NCBI GenBank assembly: GCA_020510985.1
Contig: CM035846.1
Location: 202,715,081 to 202,779,080, forward strand
Source of the DNA: Pholidichthys leucotaenia
Taxonomy: Eukaryota
Length of the DNA stretch: 64,000 nucleotides
Direction of reading: 5' to 3'
The notes under the pieces were generated by a model that was given only the letters and a program-made list of their open reading frames with translations, did no database searches and was not told the DNA's origin. The position numbers were made by a program, and so were the translations under genes. This document shows, piece by piece, positions 5,647 through 47,249 of this stretch; the first letter of the stretch is position 1, and each line of letters starts with the position of its first letter.

Positions 5647-5987
5647 GTAAAACGGGGCTATAAGGGACGGCGGGGTAATATGGGACACTTTTCTAAATGT
5701 AATTCTGCTTTTTTAATTTTGCTTCCGCCTAGATTTGATGAAGGATTCATGAATATTTTTTTTTCCACAATATCTTTATTGAACCTTTTTTTTTTTTTAA
5801 CAAACATGATACAAACAATCAAACACTAACGCTAAAGTACTACAAAAAAAAAAAAATGCACTAAAAACACCAACAACCACCAACAAAATCAAGTCTTCAA
5901 CAATGCTCCTCTGTTTAGTCTAGACAATCCAATACATAAGTATACATATTATGTTCACCAGTTTGGAATTTACAAGGTCCACACACA

Positions 5988-8900
5988 TCATTCACCTTCT
6001 TCTTCAAGAGTTATGTTTAAATTTTGTACATAATCAATAAAAGGTCTCCATATATTCTCAAACACAATTTCCTTTGATTTCAGTATATATGTTATTCTTT
6101 CTAATGGAAGGTTTGTTAACATCTGTCTTAACCACTGAGTCACATCTGGTCTATGAGTCTTTTTCCATAATAGTGCAATACATTTTTTGGCATTAAGCAA
6201 ACTGAGGTCTATGAATGTTCTTTCACTTTTATTAAAATTATGCTTTTCTGGGTACAGACCCAACAAAAACAGTTTAGGATTCAGTATGATTTGTTTTGAG
6301 ATTATTTTTTCAATTGTTACCCTCACCTCTTCCCAAAACATTCTTATTAATCTACATTCCCATAAACAATGAAATAGGGTTCCTTTACTTTCCATGCATT
6401 TTGTGCATGTATCTGGTATATTTTTGTTATATCTATTTAACTCCTCCGGTGTAACATACATCCGCATTAACCATTTGAAATGTATCAATTTAAGGCGTGC
6501 ATTTATTGATTTGGTTTGAGCTTCTGTACAAGCCAATTCCCATTGTTCCTCAGAAATTTCAATTTGCAGATCTTCTTTCCAGTAGTTTAATCTTTTCAGT
6601 GAATTTTCACTTGAAGATAGTGTCAATGAGTTATAAAACTCTGAAATAATACCCTTTCTTTTACTATCTTTCATCATCATTTTTTCCAAGGATGAATAAA
6701 TAGGTCGAGTGAGAGCTTTATTTTGATTTGATGGAATAAAGTTTCTAAGTTGAAGATATTTAAAAAAATGTGTTCTATTGAGATTAAATTTGATCCTCAG
6801 CTCTTCAAAAGACATTATGTTGTCTGCACATGGCAAATCTAAATCCTGAATCTTTTGTATCCCTTTTAAATTCCATACTTTAAATACAGCGTCCGCTCTC
6901 CCTGGTTTAAAATATTGATTACCCCATATTGGACTAAATTGTGACAATAACTGTGGTTCTTTTAAATAGTTTTTAGCTTCACACCATATTTTGATCATAT
7001 GCTTTACAAATGGATTTTTAACTTGTTTTTGTAATTTTTTTGCCGAATCTGAGTATATGAATATGGGAAGAGGTAAAGGTAAATTGTATGATTCCATTTC
7101 AGTCCAGTGAGGGAGATCATTTGATGAAAAATAATATGTCATAGACCTCAGTTGTGCCGACCAATAATACAACATAAAATTTGGACATTTCAGACCTCCA
7201 CGATCAAATGGTAAATATAATAAAGACAGACGTAATCTAGCCCTCCTGTTGTTCCATATAAATTCCACTAACTTTTTTTTTATTCTTGAGAATAGATCTA
7301 AAGGTGGTGATAAGGGAATGTATTGAAATAAATAAAGTATTTTAGGTAAAATATTACTTTTAAGTATATTGATTCTCCCGATCATCGACATTGGTAGTGA
7401 CATCCATCTCTGAGTTAACTCATTGATATCTGACATTAAGGCTTCATAGTTGACGCTGGCGACTGATTCTAGCTTAGGCATAATTTGGATTCCTAAATAT
7501 TTAAACTGATTTACAACATTGAATTGATTTGCCTCAGGGGCTGGGTAATTTCTCTGGGTCTCATTTAGCATTAATATTGAAGATTTAGTTTTATTTATTT
7601 TATATCCTGATATTTCCCCAAAATTCTTTATTAAATTCAACAAGGTTGGAATTGATTTTTTTAGATTCGACATAAACAAAATTATATCATCGGCGTACAG
7701 GGAGATTTTATGTTCTGTTGGTCCAACTTTAATTCCATATATTTGTGAATGTAAACGTATCGCTATCGCTAAAGGTTCAATTGCCATAGTGAACAGTAAA
7801 GGTGAAAGTGGACAGCCTTGTCGACATCCTCTATTGATTTTTATTGGTTTTGAAATATTGTTATTTGTTAGGATTTCTGCTGTAGCATTATTGTATATTA
7901 TTTGAACCCATTTTATGAAATTATTTCCAAGTCCAAACCTTTGTAGGACTTCAAAAAGAAAGGGCCATTCAACTCTATCAAAGGCCTTTTCGGCGTCCAA
8001 TGATAGGAGAGCTGTATCCGGTGCTTCTTTATTAAAATAAATAATATTAAATAGTCTTCTTACATTATGGAAGCCTTGTCTACCCTTTATAAAGCCATTC
8101 TGATCTCGATTAATAATATTTGGTAAAATTTCTTGTATTCGTCTTGCTAAAATTTTATAGATTATCTTAAGGTCGGCGTTTAATAGGCTTATTGGTCTCA
8201 TATTTTCACATTTATTAGAGGGCTTACCTGGTTTTGGCAGCAGTATAATTAAGGCATTATTTATGTATGATGGTAAATTATTATTTTGAAATGCTTCTAA
8301 AACCATTTCCAAAAAAGGTTTTATTAATTTATTCTTAAATTTTTTATAAAGGTCAACTGGAAGACCATCTGGTCCTGCACTTTTTCCTGATTTCATATTA
8401 TCAATGGCTAGCCCAACTTCTTCTTGACTAATTTTAGACTCCAATATCTCCCTGTTTTCATTTGGTATACACGGTGTAGATAGTTCGTTCAAAAACCCAT
8501 TTAGTTTTGTTAAATCAGGTTCATTTTTGGTATCATATAATTTTTCATAGTAATCTCTAAAGGCTCTATTAATTTCTAAAGGATCTATAACTACCTGTCC
8601 GTTACTTATAATACTGGTAATTGGTGTTTTAATTTCCAATTGTTTAATCTGCCATGCTAATAATTTTCCTGATTTTTCACCTTGTTCATAAAAAGATTGT
8701 TTCAATCTTAGAAGACTCGAGGCAGCTCTATTCGCTGATTTTTTTGTCGTATTCAGCTCTCAAAATCAGTAATTCATTCTCCAACCTTGGGTCACTTCCT
8801 GCATACACTTTTTCCTGAAGACTTTTTATTTTATGTTCCAATTTAGCTCTCTCCTCTCGAGTCTTCTTAGATTTTGATCCTGTATAACTAATATGTCCCC

Positions 8901-9789
8901 TAATAAAAGCTTTGAAAGCCTCCCACTTTACACATGCTGATGTTTGTGTAGTATTGATGTCAAAGAACTCGTCTATCTGTTTTTCTGTATACTTGACAAA
9001 TTCCTCATCCTGAAGCCATTTATGCTGAAATTGCCATCTACCTGATTCCTTTGTCAATTTTTTATCTACATATATTAGACAACAGGGTGCATGATCAGAG
9101 ATCACGATGTTATCATAAAAGCAGTTTTGAATCTTGGACCTTAATTCTGTGGAAATCAAAAAATAATCAATACGTGAGAATGTCTTGTAGGTACTGGAAT
9201 AACAAGAATAGGCTTTAACTTGTGGTTTCATTTCTCTCCATATATCTAACAATCTCAATTCTTTCATAAAATGATTAATAGTCATCCTACATCCAATGTG
9301 CGTACAATCCAGTCCTGTTGATCTATCCACACCTGGATTCAATGTACAATTAAAATCCCCTGCTATTATATGTTGCCCTGTAAGTGATGATAAGATGAGA
9401 AATAAATTAGCAAAGAACTTCTGATCATCTATATTGGGACCATATAAGTTCACAAGATTTATATTTTCTAATAGCAAAGAACCTTGAATGATTACATATC
9501 TTCCAAATTTGTCTCCAATTACATTTTTCACTTGAAAAGGAACTGATTTATGTATGAGAGTCATAACTCCCCTGGCTCGGGATGAAAATGAAGAGGTGAA
9601 TACACTTCCCTGCCATCTACTCCTAATTCTTTTAACATCCTCCTCTATCAGATGAGTTTCTTGTAAAAACACAATTCTTGAACCCATGTCCTTTATTTTA
9701 TTCATAACTTGTTTAAGTTTTTTTAAATTTTGTAGACCTCTGCAATTCCATGAAGTTAAATTAAGATTAACACTTTGGTCCATGATCAA
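5988..9789 (-). pseudogene. L1 ORF2 (APE endonuclease, reverse transcriptase and C-terminal Cys-rich domain) disrupted by a single +1 frameshift in an A7 run (6 A in copy B) near 8705-8740, plus a 3-bp deletion
   Basis: Two ORFs, 8728..9789 (endonuclease, begins [20 protein letters not shown]) and 5988..8705 (RT with FADD motif; C-terminus [18 protein letters not shown]), align collinearly to the intact 1267-aa ORF2 of copy B. Confidence 0.9.
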
Positions 9790-10254
9790 TAGAGAGTTTG
9801 GGATTACCTTGCAGTGTAAACATGCTCATACAGAGAAGCAAAAACATGAGTGGTTGAACATTCATCCTACAAACTACACACAAACAAATTTCCCCTTCCC
9901 ACACTTGTGGCAAACCCCCCAAAATCAAAAGAAAAATTCTGTCTCCCGATATAGCCATCGACCGTTCCACACCCACGGGGAACAGCCTAAGCCACTCCTT
10001 CTTCATCCTCCCAATCACCCTAACTCTACTGCTTTTAATGACGTAACATTAACTCTCCTCTGTAGTTTTCCAACTTAACTCCAAAATTTTTAACAACTTT
10101 GTACATCATAGTTTTTTTTTTTTTGTTTGTTTTGTTTTTGTTTTGTTTTTTTAATATATAATACAATCTATATTTTGTAAACTTACTATTTACTTCAAGT
10201 CAGTCAGATGCCTGTGCAAATGCTTAATTATTCTACCTTATATTTTGTTCATGC

Positions 10255-11184
10255 TTAGCTCCCACCAGTCTCTTCTTCTTCTTTGATCTTCTTGATGAAC
10301 TCCTGCGCCTCCTCTGGGGTCTTGAAGATGTGGGTTCTGCCCTCATACGTGGTCAGCAGTCTCGCAGGATAGATTACACCATGACGAATCCCAAGGTTGC
10401 GCAGCTCCTTATGTACGGGATCAAACTGCTTCCTCAATTGCTGGATTCCTGTGGCCAAATCTGGGTAGAACCGCACCTGCTGGTCCTGGTGTTTAATCTC
10501 TCCTTTTTTAGCTCGTGCAGCGTTGAAGATCTTCATCCTGTCTCTGTTGCTAAGAAACTTCATAATTAAGGTCCTCGGCGGTCCCTTATCTCTCCGTGGG
10601 CCAATACGATGTGCTTTTTCCAGAACCACTGCTGATTGCAACTCCTCGCTGCCCAGCACCTCCGGAATCCACTTTTCCAGAAAGGAACATATGTCCCGAC
10701 CTTCTGATTCCTCTGGAAGACCCACCAGCCTCAAATTATTCTGTCTCGACCGAGATTCCAAATCCAAAATATTATCTTCCAGAGATTTATTTTTTTTTTC
10801 CAAAGTGCGCACCTTTAATTGAAGACGGGTGACGTCATCTTCAGCACTAGCGAGACGGAGCTCCATCTGCGCCGTTCGTTCTACACAGTCACCCAATTCC
10901 TTTCTTATTCCTTCCAACGCTGTCATAATCCCATCAAATCTAGAGGAAAAGTCCGCTCTCATTGAACTCATGGCAGCCATCAGCGCATCTGCGCCATTCC
11001 CCGCAGATATCGCAGCGTTGCCAGCCTCCTCCGCCATATATGGAGTTTTGTTTACTGCGTCACAGACCTGAAAGTCCGTTAATTTGGACTGTTTCGGCGG
11101 CTCGCTTTTTCCTTTTCCTGGTTTTCCAGCCTTAGGCTTCGCTGACATATCTTCGCCCAAATGCTGGGATACGTTCTGTCCCAA
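10255..11184 (-). CDS. L1 ORF1 protein (309 aa): coiled-coil plus Transposase_22/RRM-like domain containing NNLRLVGLPE
   Basis: ORF is 99% identical to copy B ORF1. The conserved L1 ORF1p motif RLVGLPEESEG is present. Confidence 0.85.
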   Translation of the reverse strand: MGQNVSQHLGEDMSAKPKAGKPGKGKSEPPKQSKLTDFQVCDAVNKTPYMAEEAGNAAISAGNGADALMAAMSSMRADFSSRFDGIMTALEGIRKELGDCVERTAQMELRLASAEDDVTRLQLKVRTLEKKNKSLEDNILDLESRSRQNNLRLVGLPEESEGRDICSFLEKWIPEVLGSEELQSAVVLEKAHRIGPRRDKGPPRTLIMKFLSNRDRMKIFNAARAKKGEIKHQDQQVRFYPDLATGIQQLRKQFDPVHKELRNLGIRHGVIYPARLLTTYEGRTHIFKTPEEAQEFIKKIKEEEETGGS

Positions 11185-12383
11185 ATGAGAGAGTTATTTG
11201 CCGAATTTTTTTTTTTCCAGGAGCAGAGCAGAGCGAGACACGTCCGTCCTACGTGGCAGCCATAACCGGAAGTCGGATTCATGGATATTTGACAATAACA
11301 ACACAACTCGGCGTCCTGCTCAAAATAAAAAAAGCAGAATTACATTTAAAACATTTCCCAGAAAAGTGTCCCTTATTAACCCGCCGTCCCTTATAGCCCC
11401 GTTTTACACTACTGAACCACTAATCCTATCACTATCACATTGATTGTCATTCATTAATTGTCTGTTTATTGCACTGTCCATGTCAAATAAACAAATAATC
11501 ATTGTGAATCCAATTGCTAGTCATATCTCTTCATGTTCAGGGAATCTGAAAACGTACACACAAACACTGTATGGGGGGAACTGTGCCGCTTGGCGGAGGT
11601 CTGCGCTCTCCGAGTGCTTTTCTAGTTTATAATAAAATAAGTTGCGTTAGAGTGTGTTCAGTCTAAATGTGAAAACAGATTTTTCAGGTGGCAAAAATGT
11701 CACTGCCTGCTCCAAAACTGGATGACAATTGTTTACACTGCTATCCTGCTAGGCCTCATTGGCACATCTGCAGCAGGAGTATGTGGGTGGTTAAACAAGT
11801 CTGTTTCAGCTCCAGAGCTTCCAGTCCATCTGTCTGCAGATGAGTGTCTCATTTTCAAACTAGTTACTCTCCAGTGTTGATACTTTTACTCTGGGGATGG
11901 TACAATCTCATGGCTGATTGCTACCATGTCCCTCAGATGCAAATGTGCTACATTGAGTTAAAATGTACTCACACTGTGCAAAAAATTAGCTTCGCGTGTG
12001 AATGCATCTTTAGGGTTCTGCTTCCTTGTTTTCTTTTTATTTGGTGTTGCTTTGCATCAATCTACTGTGTGGGATTATCAGCTATTTTTTTCCACATTTC
12101 AATCCTAATGTTGAATATTGTTTATAAATAAAAGTTCATTGCTCTTAGAAAGGATGTACATGGATTATCATTATATCAGTGGCATTAAATGCTCTTCATG
12201 ACATCAGCAATATTGCTTATCATTCCATTTCTGGGAGTATTTATCATCCATCAAAATTTGTTGTTATTACAGGCCTAGCTGGAAGCGATAATTTATTTTG
12301 TGGTCTGTTTCTGAGGCCAGTATTGTTCTTCAAACTACTCTTAAAAAAATAACCTACAGTGTTGTTCATCTTTGTTCCTTCAG

Positions 12384-14897: not shown

Positions 14898-16819
14898 GTA
14901 AAATACAGAGCTTTTACTTTTGATTCCAGTGTTAATGGCCATGTTGAATAAATTAAAGCTGCAGGATGTTCAAATCCTGTCTTAAGTGTTGGATCAAGGA
15001 CCTGATCAAGGCTTTTTTTTTTTTTTTTTTTTAAAAATGCGATCAGTACTGGGGTCACTGGGTCCACTTGAGTTCAGATCTACAAATGTGGACAAATTTG
15101 TTTGTTAATAAATTAATGAATTAATTATCTCTGAAATAACTTGAAACTAATACAAGTTTAATGATATCCCTTATTGTTTATATCATACTAGCAGCAATAC
15201 CTGGTGAATGTGGCATACGTATTCACCCGGTGATGATACTACAACAGCAATGTGAAGGAGCTGCTGACCAATCGCTGCCCCTCCCAGAGTTCATCTGGGC
15301 TGCAATGAATATACAGTATAGCTTATATTGACCTGACATGCATCTCTCCAGAAATGTAACTACACATCATGGCAACGTCCTTTCCTAGACAGCACTTTAC
15401 GCACAACAATGTCAGCATTACATTATTATTTACTTAAAAAGTTGATGTTTTCAAATGTCAATAATGCATTGTTTTTATGTAGCATTCAAGGAGGGTTATT
15501 GCTCCAGTATTACTACATTCTCAAGGGTTTGTAAAGCATTAAACATGTATTAATTTTTTCATACTTTTTTATTGCACAAAGTAAAATGCACCACTGACAA
15601 TAGCATGTAGGCTTTAAACATGTAATTGACATTTATTTACCTCATTTACTGAATGCATTACTTTATTCTTCAGTCATGATAGTGTTTTACTCTTATACTG
15701 TATGTCTTTTGATTTTTACAGCTGTTTTACTTGAATGAAATTTATGTTCTGAAATTTGTTGCTTGTCACTTTGCTGCTTTTGTCTGAAGCTTTCATGTTT
15801 TTCCCACTTAAATTTGTCTCATAAATTTATAACATTTTTTTTCTCAAATTTTACATTTTCTTGTAAATTTGCAACTTTTCTTAGAGCTGACATTTTTCTC
15901 AAACTTCCTTTTTTTTCCTCAAATCAGCTTTTTTCTTTGTAAGACTTTCTGATACTTAGGTTTTTTTCCCTCAGAAATTTGCTACTTCTTGTAAATCTGC
16001 AATGTTGATATGGATAATGGTTAAATTTTGTTGCATGTTCAGCAGTGCAGGTTTATTTTTTCTGCTGATCTGGACAATGATCCAATTTTATTTTTAGTGT
16101 TTTTGTTGGGAGGGAAGTTTTTTTTGGTCAGTTTTAAAGGCTTTGGTGGATAGATGGATGGATCTTCATAAAAAGACATCTTCCTGGGTCTGCTTACAAA
16201 CATTTTAAATCCACAATAATTCACGCTTTTCTATCAGTATACTAATATTGTTTTTAATAGACAATTCAGTCCAAATTTAAAAGAATGTTGAGGATGTTGG
16301 CAGACACAGAACATTGTATGAGTCAATCTAACTACCGTATTTTTTGGACTATAAGGCGCACTTAAAATCCTTTAATTTTCTCAAAAATCGACAGTGCGCT
16401 TTATAATCCGGTGCGCCTTATGTATTAATTCTGGTTGTGCTTACTGACCTCGAACCGATTTTATGTGGTACACGGCGCTCAAAAATCTGTCAAAAATGTT
16501 TTAGTACGACTTTGGTAAGCTACAAAGCCGAACCGCTTGATGGATTGTCGGAGCATTACGGTAGTCAGGAGCCTCGCGGAGTAATATGTGCTTCAACATA
16601 ATGGCCGGATGGCTTTTTCCACAAATTTCCATCCCTATTGATCTGCCACTCCATGCGCGCCCATCTCACCGATACTGTCAAAACCCAAGTGAAGCAAACT
16701 AATTCGGAGCTTGCCATCATTCTGGGTGGATTAACCAAAGAACTCCAGCTGCTATATTGGTGTCAACAGGTCGTTCAAAGTTAAATTGCTAGCGAGTTAC
16801 GCCACTATCTGCCAATGGA

Positions 16820-17419
16820 TCGTGGATCGAAACTGCTCCTGTTTAGCTGTAATTAATATTCAAAAATGATATTTTCGGGACGAAAGAATTCAAGCGTCCC
16901 GGCATTTGTTTGCATTGTTTACTTCTCGGGGCTGCCGCCGGAGAGCGAGCCGTATCGAGTACCAAGCGAGTATCCTGGCCACTATGGCGATGTAAACAGC
17001 CACGGACCAAAAAACGTACATTTGCTCGTGGAACAGGTCATTCACACTCGCAGACAATCGCGCTATATGTGTCTATAATGACTATAGATAGGATTTTCTT
17101 TCCATGCACGCAAAAAAAAAAAAAAATTCCCAGATCAGACTACCTCGCGAGGTAGTCGATACCCAAAAGCCGATGGTGTATAGAACACGTATATTAAGAT
17201 TTGTATGTGAAATTTCGGCATCGAAACTGCTCCCGTTTAGCTGTAATTAAATATTCAAAAATGATATTTTTGGGACGAAAGAATTCAGGCGTCCCGGCAT
17301 ATGTTTACTTATCAGGGCCACCGCCGGAGAGTGAGCCGTATCGAGTACCGAGCGAGTACCCAGCGAGTATCCTGGCCAATATGGCGATGAACAGCCACGG
17401 ACTAAAAACGTTCCGCCTG
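16820..17419 (+). promoter_or_regulatory. Two ~200-bp tandem monomers (16820-17014 and 17216-17419) upstream of L1 ORF1, separated by a ~200-bp spacer (17015-17215). Part of the spacer (17022-17110) is duplicated immediately 3' of the L1 poly-A (22959-23046). Possible monomeric 5' UTR or promoter.
   Basis: cgaaactgctcc(t/c)gtttagctgtaattaa...ccggagag(c/t)gagccgtatcgagtacc...cacggac(c/t)aaaaacg is repeated. Monomer 2 is contiguous with the 5' UTR shared with copy A. Confidence 0.5.
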
Positions 17420-17506
17420 ACTTCCGGTTATGGCTGCCACGTAGGACGGACGTGTCTCGCTCTGCTCTGCTCCTGGAAAAAAAAAATCGGCAAATAACTC
17501 TCTCAT

Positions 17507-18433
17507 TTGGGACAGAACGTATCCCAGCATTTGGGCGAGGATATGTCGGCGAAGCCTAAGGCTGGAAAACCAGGAAAAGGAAAAAGCGAGCCGCCGAAAC
17601 AGTCCAAATTAACGGACTTTCAGGTCTGTGACGCAGCAAACAAAACTCCATATATGGCGGAGGAGGCTGGCAACGCTGCGATTTCTGCGGGGAATGGCGC
17701 AGATGCGCTGATGGCAGCCATGAGTTCAATGAGAGCGGACTTTTCCTCTAGATTTGATGGGATTATGACAGCGTTGGAAGGAATAAGAAAGGAATTGGGT
17801 GACTGTGTAGAACGAACGGCGCAGATGGAGCTCCGTCTCGCTAGTGCTGAAGATGACGTCACCCGTCTTCAATTAAAGGTGCGCACTTTGGAAAAAAAAA
17901 ATAAATCTCTGGAAGATAATATTTTGGATTTGGAATCTCGGTCGAGACAGAATAATTTGAGGCTGGTGGGTCTTCCAGAGGAATCAGAAGGTCGGGACGT
18001 ATGTTCCTTTCTGGAAAAGTGGATTCCGGAGGTGCTGGGCAGCGAGGAGTTGCAATCAGCAGTGGTTCTGGAAAAAGCACATCGTATTGGCCCACGGAGA
18101 GATAAGGGACCGCCGAGGACCTTAATTATGAAGTTTCTTAGCAACAGAGACAGGATGAAGATCTTCAACGCTGCACGAGCTAAAAAAGGAGAGATTAAAC
18201 ACCAGGACCAGCAGGTGCGGTTCTACCCAGATTTGGCCACAGGAATCCAGCAATTGAGGAAGCAGTTTGATCCCGTACGTAAGGAGCTGCGCAACCTTGG
18301 GATTCGTTATGGTGTAATCTATCCTGCGAGACTGCTGACCACGTATGAGGGCAGAACCCACATCTTCAAGACCCCAGAGGAGGCGCAGGAGTTCATCAAG
18401 AAGATCAAAGAAGAAGAGACTGGTGGGAGCTAA
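17507..18433 (+). CDS. L1 ORF1p (308 aa): coiled-coil plus RRM/Transposase_22-like domain
   Basis: Intact ORF with the motifs NNLRLVGLPEESEG and LIMKFLSNRDR, typical of L1 ORF1p. Confidence 0.9.
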   Translation: MGQNVSQHLGEDMSAKPKAGKPGKGKSEPPKQSKLTDFQVCDAANKTPYMAEEAGNAAISAGNGADALMAAMSSMRADFSSRFDGIMTALEGIRKELGDCVERTAQMELRLASAEDDVTRLQLKVRTLEKKNKSLEDNILDLESRSRQNNLRLVGLPEESEGRDVCSFLEKWIPEVLGSEELQSAVVLEKAHRIGPRRDKGPPRTLIMKFLSNRDRMKIFNAARAKKGEIKHQDQQVRFYPDLATGIQQLRKQFDPVRKELRNLGIRYGVIYPARLLTTYEGRTHIFKTPEEAQEFIKKIKEEETGGS

Positions 18434-18901
18434 GCATGAACAAAATATAAGGTAGAATAATTAAGCATTTGCACAGGCATCTGACTGACTTGAAGTAAAT
18501 AGTAAGTTTACAAAATATAGATTGTATTATATATTAAAAAAACAAAACAAAAACAAAACAAACAAACAAAAAAAACAAACTATGATGTACAAAGTTGTTA
18601 AAAATTTTGGAGTTAAGTTGGAAAACTACAGAGGAGAGTTAATGTTACGTCATTAAAAGCAGTAGAGTTAGGGTGATTGGGAGGATGAAGAAGGAGTGGC
18701 TTAGGCTGTTCCCCGTGGGTGTGGAACGGTCGATGGCTATATCGGGAGACAGAATTTTTCTTTTGATTTTGGGGGGTTTGCCACAAGTGTGGGAAGGGGA
18801 AATTTGTTTGTGTGTAGTTTGTAGGATGAATGTTCAACCACTCATGTTTTTGCTTCTCTGTATGAGCATGTTTACACTGCAAGGTAATCCCAAACTCTCT
18901 A

Positions 18902-21900
18902 TTGATCATGGACCAAAGTGTTAACCTTAATTTAACTTCATGGAATTGCAGAGGTCTACAAAATTTAAAAAAGCTTAAACAAGTTATGAATAAAATAAAG
19001 GACATGGGTTCAAGAATTGTGTTTTTACAAGAAACTCATCTGATAGAGGAGGATGTTAAAAGAATTAGGAGTAGATGGCAGGGAAGTGTATTCACCTCTT
19101 CATTTTCATCCCGAGCCAGGGGAGTTATGACTCTCATACATAAATCAGTTCCTTTTCAAGTGAAAAATGTAATTGGAGACAAATTTGGAAGATATGTAAT
19201 CATTCAAGGTTCTTTGCTATTAGAAAATATAAATCTTGTGAACTTATATGGTCCCAATATAGATGATCAGAAGTTCTTTGCTAATTTATTTCTCATCTTA
19301 TCATCACTTACAGGGCAACATATAATAGCAGGGGATTTTAATTGTACATTGAATCCAGGTGTGGATAGATCAACAGGACTGGATTGTACGCACATTGGAT
19401 GTAGGATGACTATTAATCATTTTATGAAAGAATTGAGATTGTTAGATATATGGAGAGAAATGAAACCACAAGTTAAAGCCTATTCTTGTTATTCCAGTAC
19501 CTACAAGACATTCTCACGTATTGATTATTTTTTGATTTCCACAGAATTAAGGTCCAAGATTCAAAACTGCTTTTATGATAACATCGTGATCTCTGATCAT
19601 GCACCCTGTTGTCTAATATATGTAGATAAAAAATTGACAAAGGAATCAGGTAGATGGCAATTTCAGCATAAATGGCTTCAGGATGAGGAATTTGTCAAGT
19701 ATACAGAAAAACAGATAGACGAGTTCTTTGACATCAATACTACACAAACATCAGCATGTGTAAAGTGGGAGGCTTTCAAAGCTTTTATTAGGGGACATAT
19801 TATTAGTTATACAGGATCAAAATCTAAGAAGACTCGAGAGGAGAGAGCTAAATTGGAACATAAAATAAAAAATCTTCAGGAAAAAGTGTATGCAGGAAGT
19901 GACCCAAGGTTGGAGAATGAATTACTGATTTTGAGAGCTGAATACGACAAAAAATCAGCGAATAGAGCTGCCTCGAGTCTTCTAAGATTGAAACAATCTT
20001 TTTATGAACAAGGTGAAAAATCAGGAAAATTATTAGCATGGCAGATTAAACAATTGGAAATTAAAACACCAATTACCAGTATTATAAGTAATGGACAGGT
20101 AGTTATAGATCCTTTAGAAATTAATAGAGCCTTTAGAGATTACTATGAAAAATTATATGATACCAAAAATGAACCTGATTTAACAAAACTAAATGGGTTT
20201 TTGAACGAACTATCTATACCGTGTATACCAAATGAAAACAGGGAGATATTGGAGTCTAAAATTAGTCAAGAAGAAGTTGGGCTAGCCATTGATAATATGA
20301 AATCAGGAAAAAGTGCAGGACCAGATGGTCTTCCAGTTGACCTTTATAAAAAATTTAAGAATAAATTAATAAAACCTTTTTTGGAAATGGTTTTAGAAGC
20401 ATTTCAAAATAATAATTTACCATCATACATAAATAATGCCTTAATTATACTGCTGCCAAAACCAGGTAAGCCCTCTAATAAATGTGAAAATATGAGACCA
20501 ATAAGCCTATTAAACGCCGACCTTAAGATAATCTGTAAAATTTTAGCAAGACGAATACAAGAAATTTTACCAAATATTATTAATCGAGATCAGAATGGCT
20601 TTATAAAGGGTAGACAAGGCTTCCATAATGTAAGAAGACTATTTAATATTATTTATTTTAATAAAGAAGCACCGGATACAGCTCTCCTATCATTGGACGC
20701 CGAAAAGGCCTTTGATAGAGTTGAATGGCCCTTTCTTTTTGAAGTCCTACAAAGGTTTGGACTTGGAAATAATTTCATAAAATGGGTTCAAATAATATAC
20801 AATAATGCTACAGCAGAAATCCTAACAAATAACAATATTTCAAAACCAATAAAAATCAATAGAGGATGTCGACAAGGCTGTCCACTTTCACCTTTACTGT
20901 TTACTATGGCAATTGAACCTTTAGCGATAGCGATACGTTTACATTCACAAATATATGGAATTAAAGTTGGACCAACAGAACATAAAATCTCCCTGTACGC
21001 CGATGATATAATTTTGTTTATGTCGAATCTAAAAAAATCAATTCCAACCTTGTTGAATTTAATAAAGAATTTTGGGGAAATATCAGGATATAAAATAAAT
21101 AAAACTAAATCTTCAATATTAATGCTAAATGAGACCCAGAGAAATTACCCAGCCCCTGAGGTAAATCAATTCAATGTTGTAAATCAGTTTAAATATTTAG
21201 GAATCCAAATTATGCCTAAGCTAGAATCAGTCGCCAGTGTCAACTATGAAGCCTTAATGTCAGATATCAGTGAGTTAACTCAGAGATGGATGTCACTACC
21301 AATGTCGATGATCGGGAGAATCAATATACTTAAAAGTAATATTTTACCTAAAATACTTTATTTATTTCAATACATTCCCTTATCACCACCTTTAGATCTA
21401 TTCTCAAGAATAAAAAAAAAGTTAGTGGAATTTATATGGAACAACAGGAGGGCTAGATTACGTTTGTCTTTATTATATTTACCATTTGATCGTGGAGGTC
21501 TGAAATGTCCAAATTTTATGTTGTATTATTGGTCGGCACAACTGAGGTCTATGACATATTATTTTTCATCAAATGATCTCCCTCACTGGACTGAAATGGA
21601 ATCATACAATTTACCTTTACCTCTTCCCATATTCATATACTCAGATTCGGCAAAAAAATTACAAAAACAAGTTAAAAATCCATTTGTAAAGCATATGATC
21701 AAAATATGGTGTGAAGCTAAAAACTATTTAAAAGAACCACAGTTATTGTCACAATTTAGTCCAATATGGGGTAATCAGTATTTTAAACCAGGGAGAGCGG
21801 ACGCTGTATTTAAAGTATGGAATTTAAAAGGGATACAAAAGATTCAGGATTTATATTTGCCATGTGCAGACAACATAATGTCTTTTGAAGAGCTGAGGAC

Positions 21901-22705
21901 CAAATTTAATCTCAATAGAACACATTTTTTTAAATATCTTCAACTTAGAAACTTTATTCGATCAAATCAAAATAAAGCTCTCACTCGACCTATTTATTCA
22001 TCCTTGGAAAAAATGATGATGAAAGATAGTAAAAGAAAGGGTATTATTTCAGAGTTTTATAACTCATTGACACTATCTTCAAGTGAAAATTCACTGAAAA
22101 GATTAAACTACTGGAAAGAAGATCTGCAAATTGAAATTTCAGAGGAACAATGGGAATTGGCTTGTACAGAAGCTCAAACCAAATCAATAAATGCACGCCT
22201 TAAATTGATACATTTCAAATGGTTAATGCGGATGTATGTTACACCGGAGGAGTTAAATAGATATAACAAAAATATACCAGATACATGCACAAAATGCATG
22301 GAAAGTAAAGGAACCCTATTTCATTGTTTATGGGAATGTAGATTAATAAGAATGTTTTGGGAAGAGGTGAGGGTAACAATTGAAAAAATAATCTCAAAAC
22401 AAATCATATTGAATCCTAAACTGTTTTTGTTGGGTCTGTACCCAGAAAAGCATAATTTTAATAAAAGTGAAAGAACATTCATAGACCTCAGTTTGCTTAA
22501 TGCCAAAAAATGTATTGCACTATTATGGAAAAAGACTCATAGACCAGATGTGACTCAGTGGTTAAGACAGATGTTAACAAACCTTCCATTAGAAAGAATA
22601 ACATATATACTAAAATCAAAGGAAATTGTGTTTGAGAATATATGGAGACCTTTTATTGATTATGTAAAAAATTTAAACATAACTCTTGAAGAAGAAGGTG
22701 AATGA
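18902..22705 (+). CDS. L1 ORF2p (1267 aa): APE-type endonuclease, reverse transcriptase (FADD box) and C-terminal CX3C...HC zinc-knuckle-like domain. It is apparently intact.
   Basis: Single uninterrupted ORF with an N-terminal endonuclease (QETHL...), RT motifs ([18 protein letters not shown]) and the C-terminal [18 protein letters not shown]. Confidence 0.9.
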
Positions 22706-23403
22706 TGTGTGTGGACCTTGTAAATTCCAAACTGGTGAACATAATATGTATACTTATGTATTGGATTGTCTAGACTAAACAGAGGAGCATTGTTGAAGAT
22801 TTGATTTTGTTGGTGGTTGTTGGTGTTTTTAGTGCATTTTTTTTTTTTTTGTAGTACTTTAGTGTTAGTGTTTGATTGTTTGTATCATGTTTGTTAAAAA
22901 AAAAAAAAAAAAGGTTCAATAAAGATATTGTGGAAAAAAAAAAAAAACGTTCCGCCTGCTCGTGGAACAGGTCATTCACACTCGCAATCGCGCTATATGT
23001 GTCTATAATGACTATAGATAGGATTTTCTTTCCATGCACGCAAAAAAATTTTTTTTCCCGGCTCCGACTACCTTGCTTTAATGCGCCTTATAATCCGGTG
23101 CGCCTTATGTATGAAAATAGACCATCAAACAGACCGTTCATTGATAGTGCGCCTTATAATCTGGTGCGCCTTATAGTCCCAAAAATACGGTAATAATTTG
23201 CTATAAAAACTTAGTCGACAGCAGTGGCAGTGGGTCTGCATACTGTTTTCTTTTTTCTCTGTTGGCACCGATCATGTGAGAAGTTGTTCTCCGCTCTTGT
23301 CCATTGCTATTTAATAAATAAAAAGACACAATTTGAACACAAATCACTGGACACAGCAGAAACCCTTTTTGACAATGCAAGAATGCATTCAGAGCAATGC
23401 AGA

Positions 23404-38620: not shown

Positions 38621-40559
38621 ATGGACTCATTGTAAAGGCCCTGTCATACCTTGATGATTTAGGCAGCATTTGTCAACGCATCAAAATTGCCCTAAAATGC
38701 TGGCATACAGCCAAAATTTTCAATTTTGGGTGTATGCCAGCATTATATATATCACGATGGACATTTTCTGTAAATTCTATAGTTTATATATGATAACCAA
38801 CAAAAAGGACCATCTCTTTTTATACTTTTTAAATTATATACTGAAAAAATCAATTTTACAAATTCATCTGTCATTAATTTTATGTACTTTCCCCTCTTAA
38901 TTTTACGGTGTTATAAAACTGTTTTTAATGTGCGTTTGAGATGACTTCAACTTTATTCATTATTGCTACTTGACTAATTAAAAATTATTAGAAATCAAGT
39001 TACTGGAAAAGTGGATTCTAGAAGCGCTGAATAACGCGGATCTGCAGTCATCGGTCGTTTTAGAGAGAACTCACCGAATCGGCCCCCCGAGAGATAATAA
39101 GACACCACCGAGGACACTGATTATGAAGTTCCTCAACTACAGAGACAAGATGACAGTCACCAATGCGGTGCGAGCTAAAGGGGAAATTAAATACCAGGAC
39201 CAACAGGTGCGGTTCTACCCGGACTTGGCTACAGGAATACAACAATTGAGGAAACAGTTCGACCCGGCCCGCAAAGAGTTGCGCAACCTAGGGATTCGTC
39301 ACGGAGTAATTCATCCAACAAGACTGCTGGTCACATATAAGGGGAGAACCCACACCTTCAAGACCCCTCAAGAGGCACAGGAGCTCATCAACCAGATCCA
39401 AAAGGAAACTGGTGGGAGCTAAGCATAAACATGACAAAGGTAGAACATTTAAGCATTTGTACAGACATCTGATTGATCTGAAACATAAACATGTCTACAA
39501 AATACAGACTGTATTAAAAAAAAAAGTTATGATGTACAACGTTGATATAAAACTTTGAAGTGATGTTGAAAAAACTACAGAAGAGAGTTAATGTCATAAG
39601 AGTAGTAGTAGTGTCAGGGTGATTGAGAGGAGAAAGAGAGTGGTTTGACTGATCCTTGCAGGTGTGGAACAGTCACTAGCTATAACGGGAGACAGAATTT
39701 TTTGATTTTGGGGGGATTACCACGAATGTGGGGAAAGGGAATCTGTTTTTGTTTAGTTTGTAGGATGAATGTTCTATCATCCATGTTTTTGCTTCTCTGT
39801 AAAAGTATGTTCATATTGCAAGGTAATCTCAAACTCCTTATTGATCATAGATCAAAGCGTTAATCTTAATTTAACTTCATGGAATTGCAGAGGTCTACAA
39901 AATCTTAAACTTAAACAAGTCATGAATAAAATAAGACAGACTCAAAAATTGTATTTTTACAAGAAACTCATCTATTAGAGGAGGATGTAAAAAGAATTAG
40001 GAGAAGATGACAAGGTAACGTGTTCACCTCATCATTTTCATCCCGAGCTAGGGGAGTTATGATTCTTATACATAAAACAGTCCCATTTCAAACAAAAAGT
40101 GTAATTAGAGACAAATTTGGAAGATATCTAATTATCCAAGGATCTTTGTTATTAGAAAATATAAATCTGGTGAACTTATACGGCCCCAATATTGATGATC
40201 AAAACTTCTTTAATTTATTCCTCACTTTATCATCACTTACAGGGCAACATATAATAGCAGGGGGTTTTAATTGTCCATTGAATCCCAGTATAGATAGATC
40301 AACAGGACTGGACTGTATGCACAATGGATGTAGGATGACCATTAATCATTTTATGAAAGAATTGAGATTGCTAGATATATGGAGAGAAATGAAACCACAA
40401 GTCAAAGCCTATTCTTGTTATTCTAATACCTATAAGACATTCTCACGTATTGACTACTTTTTGATCTCTACAGAATTAAGGTCCAAGATTCAAAACTGTT
40501 TCTATGATAACATTGTGATCTCTGATCATGCACCCTGCTGTCTAGTATATGTAGATATA

Positions 40560-42677
40560 CAGGGATGGCAATTTTCCGCTGATCCGCAGATTTCCGCCGA
40601 TTTATTTTCAAATTGATCATTTCTGTGAATTGTCTAAATCCGTTGAGAAAATTTTAGGGGGGGTAAGGTACCTTATTGTTACCAATTTTAGCGAAAATCA
40701 ACACGATTACATAAGCGCTCGGCGCTTCCCCGGGTCAAGTCTCCCGCGATAACCCGGATGTTATGTACTCAAGCTACTGCTGTATTGTAAACAGCCCTGC
40801 AATTGGATAGTTGCAAACGATTGGACCAATCAAATGGCTTGTTGTATGCTTTGTCAAAAATTCATGGCGGCGTGTTTTCAGGGATGTGATTTTTCCGCTA
40901 ATTCGCCGAATTTTGCTTTTTTTTATCTTCCAGGAAGATAAAGTATGTTAAGTACGTTAGCGGCTTGTGGTCCACGAATGCAGTGAAGGTGTGCCCTTTC
41001 AGCCAGAACTGGAAGTGACGTATGGCCAGGTGGAGAGCCATTAACTCTGTTACTGGTGGCGTACAACGGCCGCATGAGCTGGGCTGCGCGGGGGAGGAAA
41101 CGGTTATAAAAGTTAACCATCCCTCAAAACTCCTGCAGCGCCCTGACATTGATGTTGAGGAGAAAAAAATAGCAAAACAATTTAGTTAGATTACTTTTAT
41201 GATTCCAAACAGTTTGAAATTGACAGTGCACAGTGGACATTGACTCATAACTTTTGAATATTTCTAAGACTTGGCTGCATCAGTGATTGTGCAAAATGAA
41301 CCGCTCAAGACTCAATGGAGATTGAAACTGGTGATCTGAAATGAATGCTGAAATTATAAAAAAATAATGGTATGAATGAATTTTATTTCTATTATGGAAT
41401 AGATAAAATTAACTGATTTTGATTTGATCAAGTTTTAAAGCATGTGATGGATAATACTTGTTGGAATATTTTAGGAATGCTATCTTCTTGGAACATAAGT
41501 CAATATTATACATTAATAAGTGGCATTCAGCTGTTTGTTTTATGTCATTTAAGCACAGTTCTGGTACTTAAAAATCATAAAAACCCAGGAGCTTCGGGGG
41601 GCAAAGCCCCCCTTGCCCCCCCCCACCCCCAGGGCTCTGCCCCAGACCCCGCTGGGGGATTGTGTCCCCCAGACCCCCTGCTGAATTTTCAGATAATTTC
41701 CCCAACCCCAAATCACATCCCTGGTTCGTGTTGGAATTCTGACCTTTCAGTATTGTTTTCAGTGAAATTATGAGATTTTTATCGAAGGATCAGGAGTCAT
41801 CAGTGCTAGAAATAGACAAAAGTGTCAAAAATAAGTTCCGATGGAATTGGCTTGAGAGAAAAGTGACGGTAAAGGTGAAAATTGGCTCAAAGTTCGACGA
41901 GGTAACAAACACTCAGTTTCTGAAGAAAACAGAAAAGGAGATGAAGTTCAAAGTTCAGAGACTGACACAGCTTGCTGCCAAAAGGAAGAAAGTTTCACAT
42001 TAGAAGTGACTTGGTGACCAGTGTAAACAGTGTAATAAACTCTTATAGAACTGTTAAATATGTTGGACTAAAGACAGTGAGACATCATTGAAGAAAAAGT
42101 AAATTAACTTTTCATTAAATTTAATGATTTATCTAAGTCTGCACGGTGGCGCAGTGGTTAGCACTGCGCCAGCACAGTTTACCCTTGGCCAGGGGATCGT
42201 GGGAATCGTGGGATCGTGGGTTCGATCCCAGCCCCCGACCAACAGTGATCTGTGTGGAGTTTGCATGTTCTCCCCGTGTATGCGTGGGTTTACCCCGGGA
42301 TTTCTCCGGTTTCCTCCCACATGCCAAAAACATGCAGTTTAGGTTAATTGGAGACTCTAAAGTGGCCCTAGGTGTGAATGTGTGTGTGAATGGTTAAGGG
42401 ATAGCGCCGTATCGTGGCTGCTTCATCCATCCAGGTGGTGGATGACCCTCAATTTCCCCTCTGGGGATCAATAAAGTATACTAAATCTAAAAAAAAAAAA
42501 AAAAAGTCTAGTATTTCATTTTTTTTAATCATTTTTTTTTTTTCAGTCTAAATTACTTCTGTTTTACTGAAAACCTCTCAGCTTCAGGGGGGCTGCGCCC
42601 CCCCCCCCAGCCCCCCCATAAGTCAATCGACCAAATTAGATTTCAGCTGAAATCAGAATTTCCTGTTGGCATCCCTG
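40560..42677. mobile_element. Unclassified 2.1-kb non-autonomous TIR element inserted in the endonuclease region of L1 copy C. Termini are cagggatggcaa... / ...ttggcatccctg. It carries a SINE and G/C-rich low-complexity tracts.
   Basis: The L1 ORF2 sequence is interrupted precisely here. The flanks gtagatata and agataagaaattgac correspond to contiguous sequence in copy B. Terminal ~12 bp are inverted-complementary. Confidence 0.55.
42124..42500 (+). mobile_element. tRNA-derived SINE of the widespread teleost family with the conserved core gtgatctgtgtggagtttgcatgttctccc...ggtttcctcccaca, ending in poly-A
   Basis: tRNA-like head ggtggcgcagtggttagcactg...gggttcgatccc. Near-identical copy at 53128-53530. 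Confidence 0.75.
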
Positions 42678-45600
42678 AGATAAGAAATTGACGAAGGGCC
42701 CAGTTAGGTGGCATTTTCAACATAAATGGCTTCAGGATGAGGAATTTGTTAAGTACATAGAAAAACAGATGAGTTCTTTGATACCAATACTACACAAACA
42801 GCGGCATGTATAAAGTGGGAGGCTTTCAAAGCTTTTATTAGGGGACATATTAGTTATACAGGTTCAAAATCTAAGAAGACCCAAGAGGAGAGAGTCCAGT
42901 TGGAACGTAAAATAAAAATTCTTCAAGAAAAGGTGTATGCAGGAAGTAACCCACAGTTAGAGAAAGAATTACTGATTCTGAGAGCTGAATATGACAAAAA
43001 ATCAGCGAATAGAGCTGCCTCGAGTCTTCTAAGATTGAAGCAAACTTTTTATGAACAAAAATCTGGCATGGCAGATTAAACAATTAGAATCTAAAACACC
43101 AATTACCAGTATTATAAGTAACGGACAGGTAGTTATAGATCCTTTAGAAATTAATAGAGCCTTTAGAGATTATGAAAAACTATGATACAAAAAAATGAAA
43201 CTGACTTAACAAAACTAAATGGGTTTTTGGGGGGATTATCCATACCAGGTATTCCAAATGAAAACAGGGAGATACTGGAGTCTAAAATTAGTCAAGAAGA
43301 AGTTGGGCAAGCCATTGATAATATGAAATCAGGAAAAAGAGCAGGACCAGATGGTCTTCCAGTTGACCTCTATAAAAAATTTAAGAATAAATTAATAAAA
43401 CCACTTTTGGAAATGGTTTTAGAAGCATTTCAAAATAGTAATTTACCACCATACATGAATAATGCCTTAATTATACTGTTGCCAAAACCAGGTAAACCCT
43501 CTAATAAATGTGAAAACATGAGACTACAAGAAATATTACCAAATATTATTAACCGAGATCAGAATGGCTTTATAATGGGAAGACAAGGCTTCCATAATGT
43601 AAGAAGACTATTTAATATTATTTATTCCAATAAAGAAGCACCGGATACAGCTCTCTTATCATTGGACGCCAAAAAGGCCTTTGATAGGGTCGAATGGCCC
43701 TTTCTTTTTGAAGTCCTACAAAGGTTTGGACTTGGAAATAATTTCATAAAATGGGTCCAGATAATATACAATAATGCTACAGCAGAAATCCTAACAAACA
43801 GCAATATCTCAAAATCAATAAAAATCAATAGAGAATGTCAACAAGGCTGTGCACTTTCACCTTTATTGTTTACTATGGCAGTTGAACCTTTAGCGATGGC
43901 AGTACGTTTACATCCACAAATATATGGAATTAAAGTAGGACCAACAGAACATAAAATCTCCCTGTATGCCGATGACATAATTGTTTGTCGAATTTTAAAA
44001 AAATCAATTCCGACCTTGTTAAATTTAATAAAGAACTTTGGGGATATATCAGGATATAAAATAAACAAAACAAAATCTTCAATATTAATGTTAAATGAGA
44101 CCCAGAGAAATCATCCATCTCCTGAGGTAAACCAATTAAATGTTGTAGATCAGTTTAAATATTTAGGAATTCAAATTTTTCCTAAGCTAGAATCAGTCAC
44201 CAATGCCAACTATGAAGCCTTAATGACAGATATTGAGTTGCTTCAGAGATGGATGTCACTACCAATGTCGATGATCGGGAGAATTAATATGCTTAAAAGT
44301 AATATCTTACCAAAAATACTTTATTTATTTCAAAACATTCCTTTACCACCACCTTCAGATCTATTCTCAAGAATTAAAAAAAGTTAGTGTAATTTATATG
44401 GAACAATAAGAAGGCTAGATTACGTTTGTCCTTACTATATTTACCATTTGATCGTGGAGGTCTGAAATGTCCAAACTTTATGTTGTATTACTGGTCAGCA
44501 CAGCTGAGGTCTGACATATTATTTTTCATCAAATGATCCTCCTCACTGGACTGAAATGGAATCATACAATTTACCTTTACCTCTTCCCTTATTCATATAC
44601 TCAGACTCGGCTAAAAAATTACAGAAACAAGTTAAAAATCCAATTGTAAAGCACATGATCAAAATGTGGTGTGAAACTAAAAAATATTTAAAAGAACCAC
44701 ACTCACTGTCACAATTTAGCCCAATATGGGGTAATCAATATTTTACACCAGGGAGAGCAGATACTGTATTTAAAGTATGGAATTTAAAAGGGATTCAAAA
44801 GATTCAAGACATATTTGTCACGCTCGGATAACATAATGTCTTTTGAAGAACTGAGGATTAAATTCAATCTTAATAGAACACACTTTATTAAATATCTTCA
44901 GCTTAGAAATTTTATTCGTTCAAATCAAAATAATGCTCTCACCCGACCTACTTATTCATCTTTGGAAAAAATTTTGATGAAAAATAGTAAGAGAAAGGGT
45001 ATTATTTCAGAGTTTTATAACTCATTGACACTATTCTCAAGTGAAAACTCACAGAAAAGACTGAATGACTGGAAAGAAGACCTGCAAATTGAAATTTCAG
45101 AGGAACAATGGGAAATGGCTTGTGCAGGAGCTCATACCAAATCAATAAATGTACATCTTAAACTGAAACATTTTAAATGGTTAATGCAGATGTATGTTAC
45201 ACCAGTGGAATTAAATAGATATAACAAAAACATACCAGATACACGCACAAAATGTATGGAAAGTAAAGGAACCCTATTTCACTGTTTATGGGAATGTAGA
45301 AAAATCCGAATGTTTTGGGAAGAGGTGAGGGTAACAATTGAAAAAATAATTTCAAAACAATTCACATTGAACCCTAAACTGTTTTTGTTGGGTCTGTATC
45401 CAAAAAAACACAACTTTAATAAGAGTGAAAGAGCATTCATAGACCTCGGTTTGCTTAATGCCAAAAAATGTATTGCACTACTGTGGAAAAAGACTCATAG
45501 ACCAGATGTGACTCAGTGGTTAAGACAGATGCTAACAAACCTTCCACTAGAAAGAATAACATATATACTGAAATCAAAGGAAAATGTGTTTGAGAATATA

Positions 45601-45706
45601 TGGAGACCTTTCATTGATTATGTAAAGAAATTAAACATAACTTCTGAAGAAGAAGGTGAATGATATGTGTGGACCTTGCAAATTCCAAGCTGGTGAATGT
45701 ATATTA

Positions 45707-46931
45707 TACACTCACCGGCCACTTTATTAGGTACACCTGTCCAACTGCTCGTTAACACTTAATTTCTAATCAGCCAATCACATGGTGGCAACTCAGTGCA
45801 TTTAGGCATGTAGACATGGTCAAGACAATCTCCTGCAGTTCAAACCGAGCATCAGTATGGGGAAGAAAGGTGATTTGAGTGACTTTGAACGTGGCATGGT
45901 TGTTGGTGCCAGAAGGGCTGGTCTGAGTATTTCAGAAACTGCTGATCTACTGGGATTTTCACGCACAACCATCTCTAGGGTTTACAGAGAATGGTCCGAA
46001 AAAGAAAAAATATCCAGTGAGCGGCAGTTCTGTGGGCGGAAATGCCTTGTTGATGCCAGAGGTCAGAGGAGAATGGCCAGACTGGTTCGAGCTGATAGAA
46101 AGGCAACAGTGACTCAAATAACCACCCGTTACAACCAAGGTAGGCAGAAGAGCATCTCTGAACGCACAGTACGTCGAACTTTGAGGCAGATGGGCTACAG
46201 CAGCAGAAGACCACGCCGGGTGCCACTCCTTTCAGCTAAGAACAGGAAACTGAGGCTACAATTTGCACAAGCTCATCGAAATTGGACAATAGAAGATTGG
46301 AAAAACGTTGCCTGGTCTGATGAGTCTCGATTTCTGCTGCGACATTCGGATGGTAGGGTCAGAATTTGGCGTCAACAACATGAAAGCATGGATCCATCCT
46401 GCCTTGTATCAATGGTTCAGGCTGGTGGTGGTGGTGTAATGGTGTGGGGAATATTTTCTTGGCACTCTTTGGGCCCCTTGGTACCAATTGAGCATCGTTG
46501 CAACGCTACAGCCTACCTGAGTATTGTTGCTGACCATGTCCATCCCTTTATGACCACAATGTACCCAACTTCTGATGGCTACTTTCAGCAGGATAATGCG
46601 CCATGTCATAAAGCTGGAATCATCTCAGACTGGTTTCTTGAACATGACAATGAGTTCACTGTACTCAAATGGCCTCCACAGTCACCAGATCTCAATCCAA
46701 TAGAGCATCTTTGGGATGTGGTGGAACGGGAGATTCGCATCATGGATGTGCAGCCGACAAATCAGCGCCAACTGTGTGATGCCATCATGTCAATATGGAC
46801 CAAACTCTCTGAGGAATGCTTCCAGCACCTTGTTGCATCTATGCCACGAAGAATTGAGGCAGTTCTGAAGGCAAAAGGGGGTCCAACCCGTTACTAGCAT
46901 GGTGTACCTAATAAAGTGGCCGGTGAGTGTA
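45707..46931 (+). mobile_element. Tc1-like DNA transposon (~1.2 kb) with ~30-bp TIRs tacactcaccggccactttattaggtacacc and an intact transposase ORF. It is inserted at a TA in the 3' UTR of L1 copy C.
   Basis: TIRs read at both ends. The L1 3' UTR sequence continues on either side. The internal 346-aa ORF is complete. Confidence 0.85.
45857..46897 (+). CDS. Tc1/mariner-family DDE transposase (346 aa), apparently intact, with N-terminal paired-like HTH and a D,D,E triad (SDESRF / QQDNAPCH / NPIEHLWD)
   Basis: Uninterrupted ORF with canonical Tc1 motifs, bounded by the element TIRs. Confidence 0.85.
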
Positions 46932-47249
46932 TATTCTTATGTAATAGATTACCTAGACTAAACAGAGGAGCATTGTTGTTGACTTGTGTTTGTTAATGGC
47001 TGTTGTTTTTATTACACTTTTTTTTGTTATTGTTCTTTTTAATTTTTAAATTACTTTTGTGTTCGTGTCTGACTGTGTGCTTTGTTTGTAAAAAAAAAAA
47101 AAAAAGTTCAATAAAAAATTGTGGGAAAAAAAAAGAAATCAAGTTACACTAAGAGCCAGTTCTCCAACACGTTTTAATTAATTTATTTATTTAGTGTGTA
47201 TATGGCCACTGTCATGCACTTATGCAGCTTTAGTAATATTTTTTATTCA

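Follow-up and report, generated by a model that had tools for sequence, protein, structure and literature searches.

The stretch of DNA analysed here, called the window in what follows, comprises 64,000 nucleotides of contig CM035846.1 of Pholidichthys leucotaenia (assembly GCA_020510985.1, forward strand, positions 202,715,081 to 202,779,080), and all positions given below are counted from its first letter. Two L1 retrotransposons, copy A and copy B, lie in it in inverted, divergent orientation on either side of a 6.1-kb spacer (11275-17418). The window also holds an older L1 relative (copy C), a fragment of another LINE (long interspersed nuclear element), two DDE-transposase-like open reading frames (ORFs) and several short repeats. 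It is very probable that copy B represents a full-length, structurally intact and young vertebrate L1 proper in a fish genome of percomorph type, as distinct from a Tx1 element, and that copy A represents a separate insertion of the same family disabled by a single homopolymer frameshift. The features of the locus are collected in Table 1.

Table 1. Features of the L1 copies and of the host repeat of copy B (aa, amino acids; EN, endonuclease; RT, reverse transcriptase; TSD, target-site duplication; UTR, untranslated region)
Feature	Position	Strand	Description	Basis
Copy B	17419..22942	+	full-length L1, 5524 bp	end-to-end homology with copy A; reconstructed empty site aligned to paralogous repeat
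Copy B 5' TSD	17404-17419	+	16 bp, AAAAACGTTCCGCCTG	matches 22943-22958 at 16/16
Copy B 3' TSD	22943-22958	+	16 bp, AAAAACGTTCCGCCTG	read from sequence
Copy B 5'UTR	17419..17542	+	124 bp, 51% GC, CpG observed/expected 1.0, starts GACTTCCGGTTATGGC	
Copy B ORF1	17543..18433	+	296 aa from ATG	uninterrupted
Copy B inter-ORF spacer	18434..18907	+	474 bp, contains (AAAAC)n microsatellite at 18536-18580	
Copy B ORF2	18908..22705	+	1265 aa from ATG; APE-type EN, RT, Cys-rich C-terminal domain	uninterrupted
EN domain	18926..19606	+	aa 7-233; N13, E42, D143, N145, D206, H231 present	
RT domain	20456..21211	+	aa 517-768; motif A LDAEKAFD, motif C YADD	
Cys-rich motif	22286..22339	+	CX2CX8HX4C: C1127, C1130, H1139, C1144	
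Copy B 3'UTR	22706..22942	+	237 bp, 28% GC, zero CpG	
A-tailed repeat, first unit	16826..17118	+	~293 bp, uninterrupted paralog, outside the L1	
A-tailed repeat, second unit	17220-17419 and 22959-23048		~293 bp, SINE-like, split by copy B, 86% identical to the first unit	
Copy A	5756..11274	-	full-length sibling, 5519 bp	end-to-end alignment with copy B
Copy A ORF1	11148-10255	-	intact, 297 aa	
Copy A 5' TSD	11275..11290	-	AAATATCCATGAATCC	
Copy A 3' TSD	5743..5758	-	AAATATTCATGAATCC	15/16 positions match the 5' TSD
Copy C	39000..47134	+	older relative from the same L1 lineage, truncated at its 5' end; 77-91% identity; used as outgroup	BLASTN and TBLASTN

The limits of copy B are sharply defined. 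Indeed, homology with copy A stops abruptly at 17419 and 22942 in BLASTN comparisons, the flanking DNA being unrelated, and the element is enclosed by perfect 16-bp TSDs, with the base G17419 counted both as the end of the upstream TSD and as the first base of the element. When the flanks of copy B are joined with one copy of the TSD, the resulting sequence aligns across the junction to the neighbouring repeat unit at 86% identity. Thus, copy B was inserted into one of two adjacent ~293-bp A-tailed repeats. Scans of both units of this repeat, which resembles a SINE (short interspersed nuclear element), with Rfam and for tRNA gave zero matches. A preliminary description of this DNA, made from the sequence alone, had placed the start of the element at 16820, some 600 bp upstream of its true position, as homology with copy A begins at 17419 and the interval 16826-17418 is taken up by the ~293-bp repeat. 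The flanking direct repeats proper are the TSDs, and those of that description probably correspond to the longer repeat made up of the host repeat together with its neighbouring paralog. At the other end, the 3'UTR and the poly(A) stretch are present as described, and an AATAAA motif at 22918-22923 is followed by a poly(A) tail that starts at 22934 (A-run 22934-22947). The TSDs of A and B differ in sequence and both begin within an A-run, and the poly(A) tail, the signal and the variable TSDs at T-rich nick sites that are typical of L1 are all found. A short repeat containing GCGCCTTATAATCCGGTGCGCC is also present at 16333-16425 and 23079-23174, on either side of the host repeat of copy B, in direct and inverted orientation.

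Both reading frames of copy B are complete, as first claimed, with no internal stop or frameshift (17507/17543-18433 and 18902/18908-22705). The lengths originally given, 308 and 1267 aa, hold when counted from TTG, since the ORF list used the bacterial table and took TTG as start (17507-18433 and 18902-22705), while 296 and 1265 aa are obtained from the first ATG.

The 5' ends provide a further indication of completeness. Both A and B start with GACTTCCGGTTATGGC, which corresponds to the conserved terminus of non-mammalian L1 elements, GACTTCCGGTT. This terminus is reported to be extremely conserved, with the consensus GGACTTCCGGTT for zebrafish L1 and GACTTCCGGTG-N8-ATGGCG for lizard L1 (PMC5381506). 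In parallel, a relative retrieved from an unrelated public sample (L003), whose ORF2 is 82% identical, starts with GACTTCCGGTTATGGCGGCCACGTAG at the same nucleotide and has unrelated sequence upstream. Since L003 begins at the same nucleotide as both copies, and since the terminus matches that of published L1 elements, A and B are truly full length, and they add a percomorph example to the deeply conserved GACTTCCGG 5' terminus. Another relative, L002 (Logan SRR19345917), is a fish L1 with an ORF2 about 59% identical, present as a full-length insertion with the TSD AAAAAGACACCGAG (1-90, 5560-5597); its 5' terminus, GGGCTCCAAGATGGCCGC, resembles the YY1-site terminus of mammals and not the GACTTCCGG type.

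Residues 7-1248 of the ORF2 product align collinearly with residues 8-1249 of human L1 ORF2p (8uw3; E=5.8e-177), while R2 proteins match the product far worse, at only ~1e-28. Over 897 aa, 33.3% of its residues are identical to those of human ORF2p, a value near the 36-37% of the most distant fish L1 homologs among the matches listed. The C-terminal domain, aligned separately, also matches human L1 ORF2p (E=1.8e-15), and the Pfam families Exo_endo_phos and RVT_1 are recognized in ORF2. The protein therefore has, as is found in reference ORF2p and homologous to it, an N-terminal APE-type EN, an RT and a Cys-rich C-terminal domain. Its integrity was checked by alignment of copy B with 94 full-length homologs, and every residue checked in the EN, the RT and the Cys motif is present and agrees with these homologs. 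The matches that carry a species name are from percomorph fishes such as Oryzias, Poecilia, Nothobranchius, Xiphophorus, Kryptolebias and Oreochromis.

The ORF1 protein (ORF1p) is laid out as a coiled coil (~aa 70-135), an RRM (~137-227) and a C-terminal domain, or CTD (~228-285). It matches the trimer core of human ORF1p (PDB 2ykp) with E=7e-14, and a profile of four sequences, built with the ORF1s of relatives, finds 2ykp at 5.8e-19 together with three further structures, 2ldy of mouse ORF1p, 2w7a of the human RRM and 2jrb of the mouse CTD. Neither zf-CCHC nor RRM_1 matches ORF1 even at E<=1, and the protein has only three cysteines and no CX2CX4HX4C motif. As it is homologous to the human and mouse ORF1p structures and has no zinc-knuckle family, ORF1p is of Type II, which in the published scheme consists of coiled coil, RRM and CTD (PMC5203782). 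An antisense ORF of 130 aa (18613-19005), present in both A and B, was considered as an ORF0-like gene and rejected, as copy C, L001 and L003 all carry stop codons within it.

The anatomy of the element is that of L1 in other non-mammalian vertebrates. As in zebrafish and lizard, the 5'UTR is short (124 bp here, ~160 bp being the fish average) and the inter-ORF spacer is long (474 bp, within the published range of 257-1032 bp), and the AT-rich 3'UTR, the CX2CX8HX4C motif, the Type II ORF1p, the poly(A) and the terminus GACTTCCGGTT are shared with the L1 of fish, frog and lizard (PMC5381506). The likeness extends to human L1 (L1HS; 8uw3, 8sxt, 2ykp), with which the element has in common two ORFs, the order of EN, RT and Cys-rich domain, collinearity over ~1240 residues at 33% identity, an ORF1p made of coiled coil, RRM and CTD, a poly(A) tail, TSDs and T-rich nick sites. 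In contrast to human L1, the 5'UTR is about eight times shorter, the terminus is ETS-like (ACTTCCGG) instead of being a YY1 terminus, the Cys motif is CX2CX8HX4C instead of CX3CX7HX4C, and the PIP-box region reads NxxFxxYY instead of QxxIxxYY. The inter-ORF spacer of 474 bp is also longer than that of human L1, which measures 63 bp.

Copy A had been presented as an inverted sibling more than 98% identical to copy B, and the alignment of 17419-22942 with 11274-5756, obtained by inverted-repeat search and BLASTN, indeed gives 99.17% identity end to end. The two copies differ by 29 mismatches, 23 of which are transitions, and by 8 indel events, five of them in homopolymer or microsatellite runs; substitutions amount to 0.53%. 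In copy A, one additional A (8745) in an A6 run that corresponds to B 19943-19948 divides ORF2 into two frames of 353 and 905 aa. This frameshift, already recognized at first reading, is the sole disabling lesion of copy A and could be an assembly error. The 3-bp indel reported along with it is likewise real, and there are in fact two in-frame indels of this size between A and B, one in ORF1 (AAG at B 18407, in a GAA-rich stretch close to the ORF1 end) and one in ORF2 (TAT at B 19798-19800). The TSD pair of copy A can be written jointly as AAATAT(C/T)CATGAATCC, at 11290-11275 and 5758-5743. As targets, TSDs and flanks all differ between the two copies, A and B derive from two independent retrotransposition events. 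Copy A is itself flanked by inverted arms at 5647-5721 and 11321-11407, with blocks of 28 and 48 nt at 96% identity (75-87 nt per side), and the element that it splits looks like a small palindromic one, similar to a MITE (miniature inverted-repeat transposable element).

Both insertions are young with respect to copy C, which in ORF1 is 77% identical to copy B and in the 3' half of ORF2 reaches 91%, and which is broken by a 2.1-kb insert (40557-42678) and by a Tc1-like transposon (45705-46933). With copy C as outgroup, 19 of the A/B substitutions can be polarised, 12 having changed on the lineage of A and 7 on that of B; the extra A of copy A is derived as well, and the TAT of copy B is missing from both A and C. 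Since derived changes are found on both lineages, A and B are cousins and not parent and daughter. Among the 26 coding differences, 13 are synonymous and 13 nonsynonymous, while 7.8 synonymous changes would be expected without selection (P(13 or more)=0.025, by simulation keeping the transition/transversion and CpG classes). This excess indicates that part of the A/B divergence arose in source elements that were functional, replicating and subject to purifying selection, and it suggests that the two cousins stem from an active lineage that was evolving. As the divergence was partly accumulated within source elements, the raw 0.5% overstates the age of the insertions. In parallel, CpG observed/expected reaches 0.57 in copy B, against 0.40 for copy C and 0.44 for the window, and 6 of the 29 substitutions fall at CpG sites, as expected for fresh methylation-driven decay. 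The TSD of copy B shows no mismatch, and the A tails consist of A only. The claim of very recent retrotransposition is thus in agreement with all the indirect signs available in the window, namely TSDs, CpG retention and synonymous excess. If mutations arise at a few times 1e-9 per site and generation, as is typical of teleosts, the 0.53% divergence roughly dates the A/B split to ~1 million generations ago or less, and neither insertion would be older than this.

From what is known of the L1 family, a mobilization cycle can be outlined for copy B. The CpG-rich 124-bp 5'UTR, which is presumed to act as an internal promoter, would start transcription at the conserved GACTTCCGG terminus, and the resulting bicistronic RNA would be polyadenylated downstream of AATAAA. 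The RNA would then be coated by ORF1p, in the form of a coiled-coil trimer with RRM and CTD, while ORF2p would be translated beyond the 474-bp spacer. The endonuclease of ORF2p would nick the T-rich bottom strand (5'-TTTTT/A at the site of copy B), and the freed 3'OH would prime on the poly(A) tail, thus allowing the RT to copy the RNA in place (target-primed reverse transcription) and generating the 16-bp TSD. We infer promoter function, translation and present-day mobility of copy B from this family-wide scheme, and its retrotransposition competence appears plausible on the basis of the sequence.

Some observations weigh against an intact young L1 at this locus. The TSD of copy A carries one mismatch in 16, and the selection signal is based on only 26 substitutions. 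On ORF1, the Pfam family Transposase_22 scores 14.5 bits against a cutoff of 22.4 and is thus sub-threshold, although the match covers positions 2-95 of the 98-position model; Pfam otherwise returns generic coiled-coil noise only, and it is for this reason that the type of ORF1 was decided by solved structures. The exact ORF2 protein, sought in the public assembly collection, has no record there, and the best full-length homolog in the searched collection is 68% identical (82% for a partial match), values that point to an undescribed or unsampled family. In addition, copy B deviates at 2 of the 133 ORF2 columns conserved at >=95%: S810 (21335-21337) stands where 93 of 94 homologs have M, and H1102 (22211-22213) where Q is found in 94 of 94 homologs as well as in human L1. 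Finally, ORF1 H256Y, ORF2 I998T and the 3-bp TAT insertion are private derived changes of copy B.

The last two points lend themselves to a different explanation, according to which copy B looks intact and is nevertheless immobile, by reason of subtle amino-acid changes or of host silencing, and would then be a very recent fossil. This is a real possibility, although we hold it to be the less probable one. It agrees with the derived nonsynonymous changes and the 3-bp insertion that distinguish B from A and C, as well as with the deviation of the family at two near-invariant ORF2 positions. Furthermore, in human L1 only a fraction of the copies with intact ORFs are active in assays. Against it, S810 and H1102 occur in A and B and also in copy C, which is much older, so the lineage continued to proliferate while carrying both, and the two residues are better seen as old, lineage-specific traits that set this L1 apart from other non-mammalian elements than as private lesions. 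The catalytic residues are all intact, and the synonymous excess speaks for selection for coding function until very recently.

A structurally intact and young copy B also has to be weighed against gene conversion, by which the high identity of A and B would have been maintained between nearby inverted copies while both insertions could be old. The arrangement would lend itself to such a process, with A and B inverted and merely 6.1 kb apart, and nearby inverted copies are known to promote intrachromosomal conversion; the mismatch in the TSD of copy A would fit an older insertion too. This reading is very improbable. Indeed, the 37 difference events are evenly distributed (KS p=0.67) and leave no extended stretch of identity (longest gap, P=0.09), the TSD of copy B and the poly(A) tails show no decay, CpG retention is far above that of copy C and of the genomic background, and conversion would not yield a synonymous excess.

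Still less probable is the assignment of A and B to the Tx1 group as target-specific elements, which the label 'Tx1-like' of the preliminary description had implied. Tx1 belongs to the L1 clade as one of its subgroups, with EN and RT similarly organised (PMC5203782), and the fish 'F' L1 lineage groups with Tx1 in some trees (PMC3747384). The Tx1 group, which includes Tx1L of Xenopus and target-specific relatives in fish, thus has in common with the present element the broad L1 clade and the APE-type EN with RT; it is, however, defined by target-specific insertion (PMC3747384) and marked by RRM and/or zf-CCHC (Type I-like) variants of ORF1 (PMC5203782). Neither feature is found here, as A, B, L002 and L003 lie in four unrelated sequences, with readable TSDs that differ (AAATATCCATGAATCC for A, AAAAACGTTCCGCCTG for B and AAAAAGACACCGAG for L002), and as ORF1p is of Type II without a CCHC zinc knuckle. 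ORF2 is, moreover, fully collinear with human L1 ORF2p, C-terminal domain included. For the EN domain, the score is higher with human L1 EN (1vyb, 87.9 bits) than with the chain named LTX (2v0r, 73.5 bits), which we take to be human L1 EN onto which a hairpin of Tx1L has been grafted. In turn, the 5' terminus agrees with published L1 families (PMC5381506). Judged by ORF1p type, target sites, ORF2 collinearity, anatomy and terminus, the element can be classified as a canonical non-mammalian vertebrate L1. As for an inverted segmental duplication or an assembly artefact in place of two retrotranspositions, to which the nearly identical inverted 5.5-kb arms and the five indel events in error-prone runs might have pointed, it is effectively refuted by homology that stops exactly at the L1 termini and by unrelated flanks in which each copy has its own TSD and its own host repeat.

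A canonical L1 of this kind largely fits what is known of teleosts. L1 families in these fishes are young and of low copy number, with few near-identical full-length copies (PMC3381678, PMC5381506); as such families are the documented teleost norm, the present finding mostly confirms expectation. The L1/Tx1 families A and B of stickleback, in particular, are of low divergence (~1-3%) and have few, very similar full-length copies, which were read by the authors as possible active progenitors (Blass et al. 2012, PMC3381678). Full-length copies are, however, reported to be extremely scarce in stickleback (PMC3381678), as in teleosts at large, whereas here two are 6 kb apart and an older third copy follows 16 kb on. 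The value of the locus lies in a precisely bounded and apparently intact fish L1, which is suited to a direct retrotransposition assay.

The presence of A and B within 12 kb, and of an older copy and a Tc1 element of intact appearance in the same 64 kb, invites the speculation that the clustering is not due to chance. It would reflect either a population of young full-length L1 that is unusually large for a teleost or a refuge for transposable elements with low recombination (sex-linked or pericentromeric), and recombination within the inverted pair would flip 11275-17418 as a polymorphic inversion. As a whole this scenario is rather unlikely. Speculatively, the L1 pair may mark a region tolerant of transposable elements or an unusually large young family, and the inverted pair (5.5 kb, 99%) is a plausible substrate for inversion of the 6.1-kb spacer. 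If a refuge were indeed present, full-length elements would escape purging there. Given the scarcity of full-length copies in teleosts, the locus may inform where full-length L1s persist and whether inverted L1 pairs drive local rearrangement.

Other mobile elements of the window include the Tc1/mariner-like transposon nested in copy C, which is 1229 bp long (45705-46933) and has perfect 33-bp terminal inverted repeats (TATACACTCACCGGCCACTTTATTAGGTACACC). It contains an uninterrupted transposase ORF of 346 aa (45857-46897) with HTH_Tnp_Tc3_2 and DDE_3 domains, and may be young and intact itself. An RT fragment of a different LINE is found at 48353-48730 (RVT_1, E=9e-13) and is 27% identical to the L1 ORF2. 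Finally, an ORF of 161 aa on the minus strand (60150-60635) gives a weak match to DDE_3 (E=4e-5, below the Pfam cutoff) and is probably what is left of a decayed Tc1-like element.

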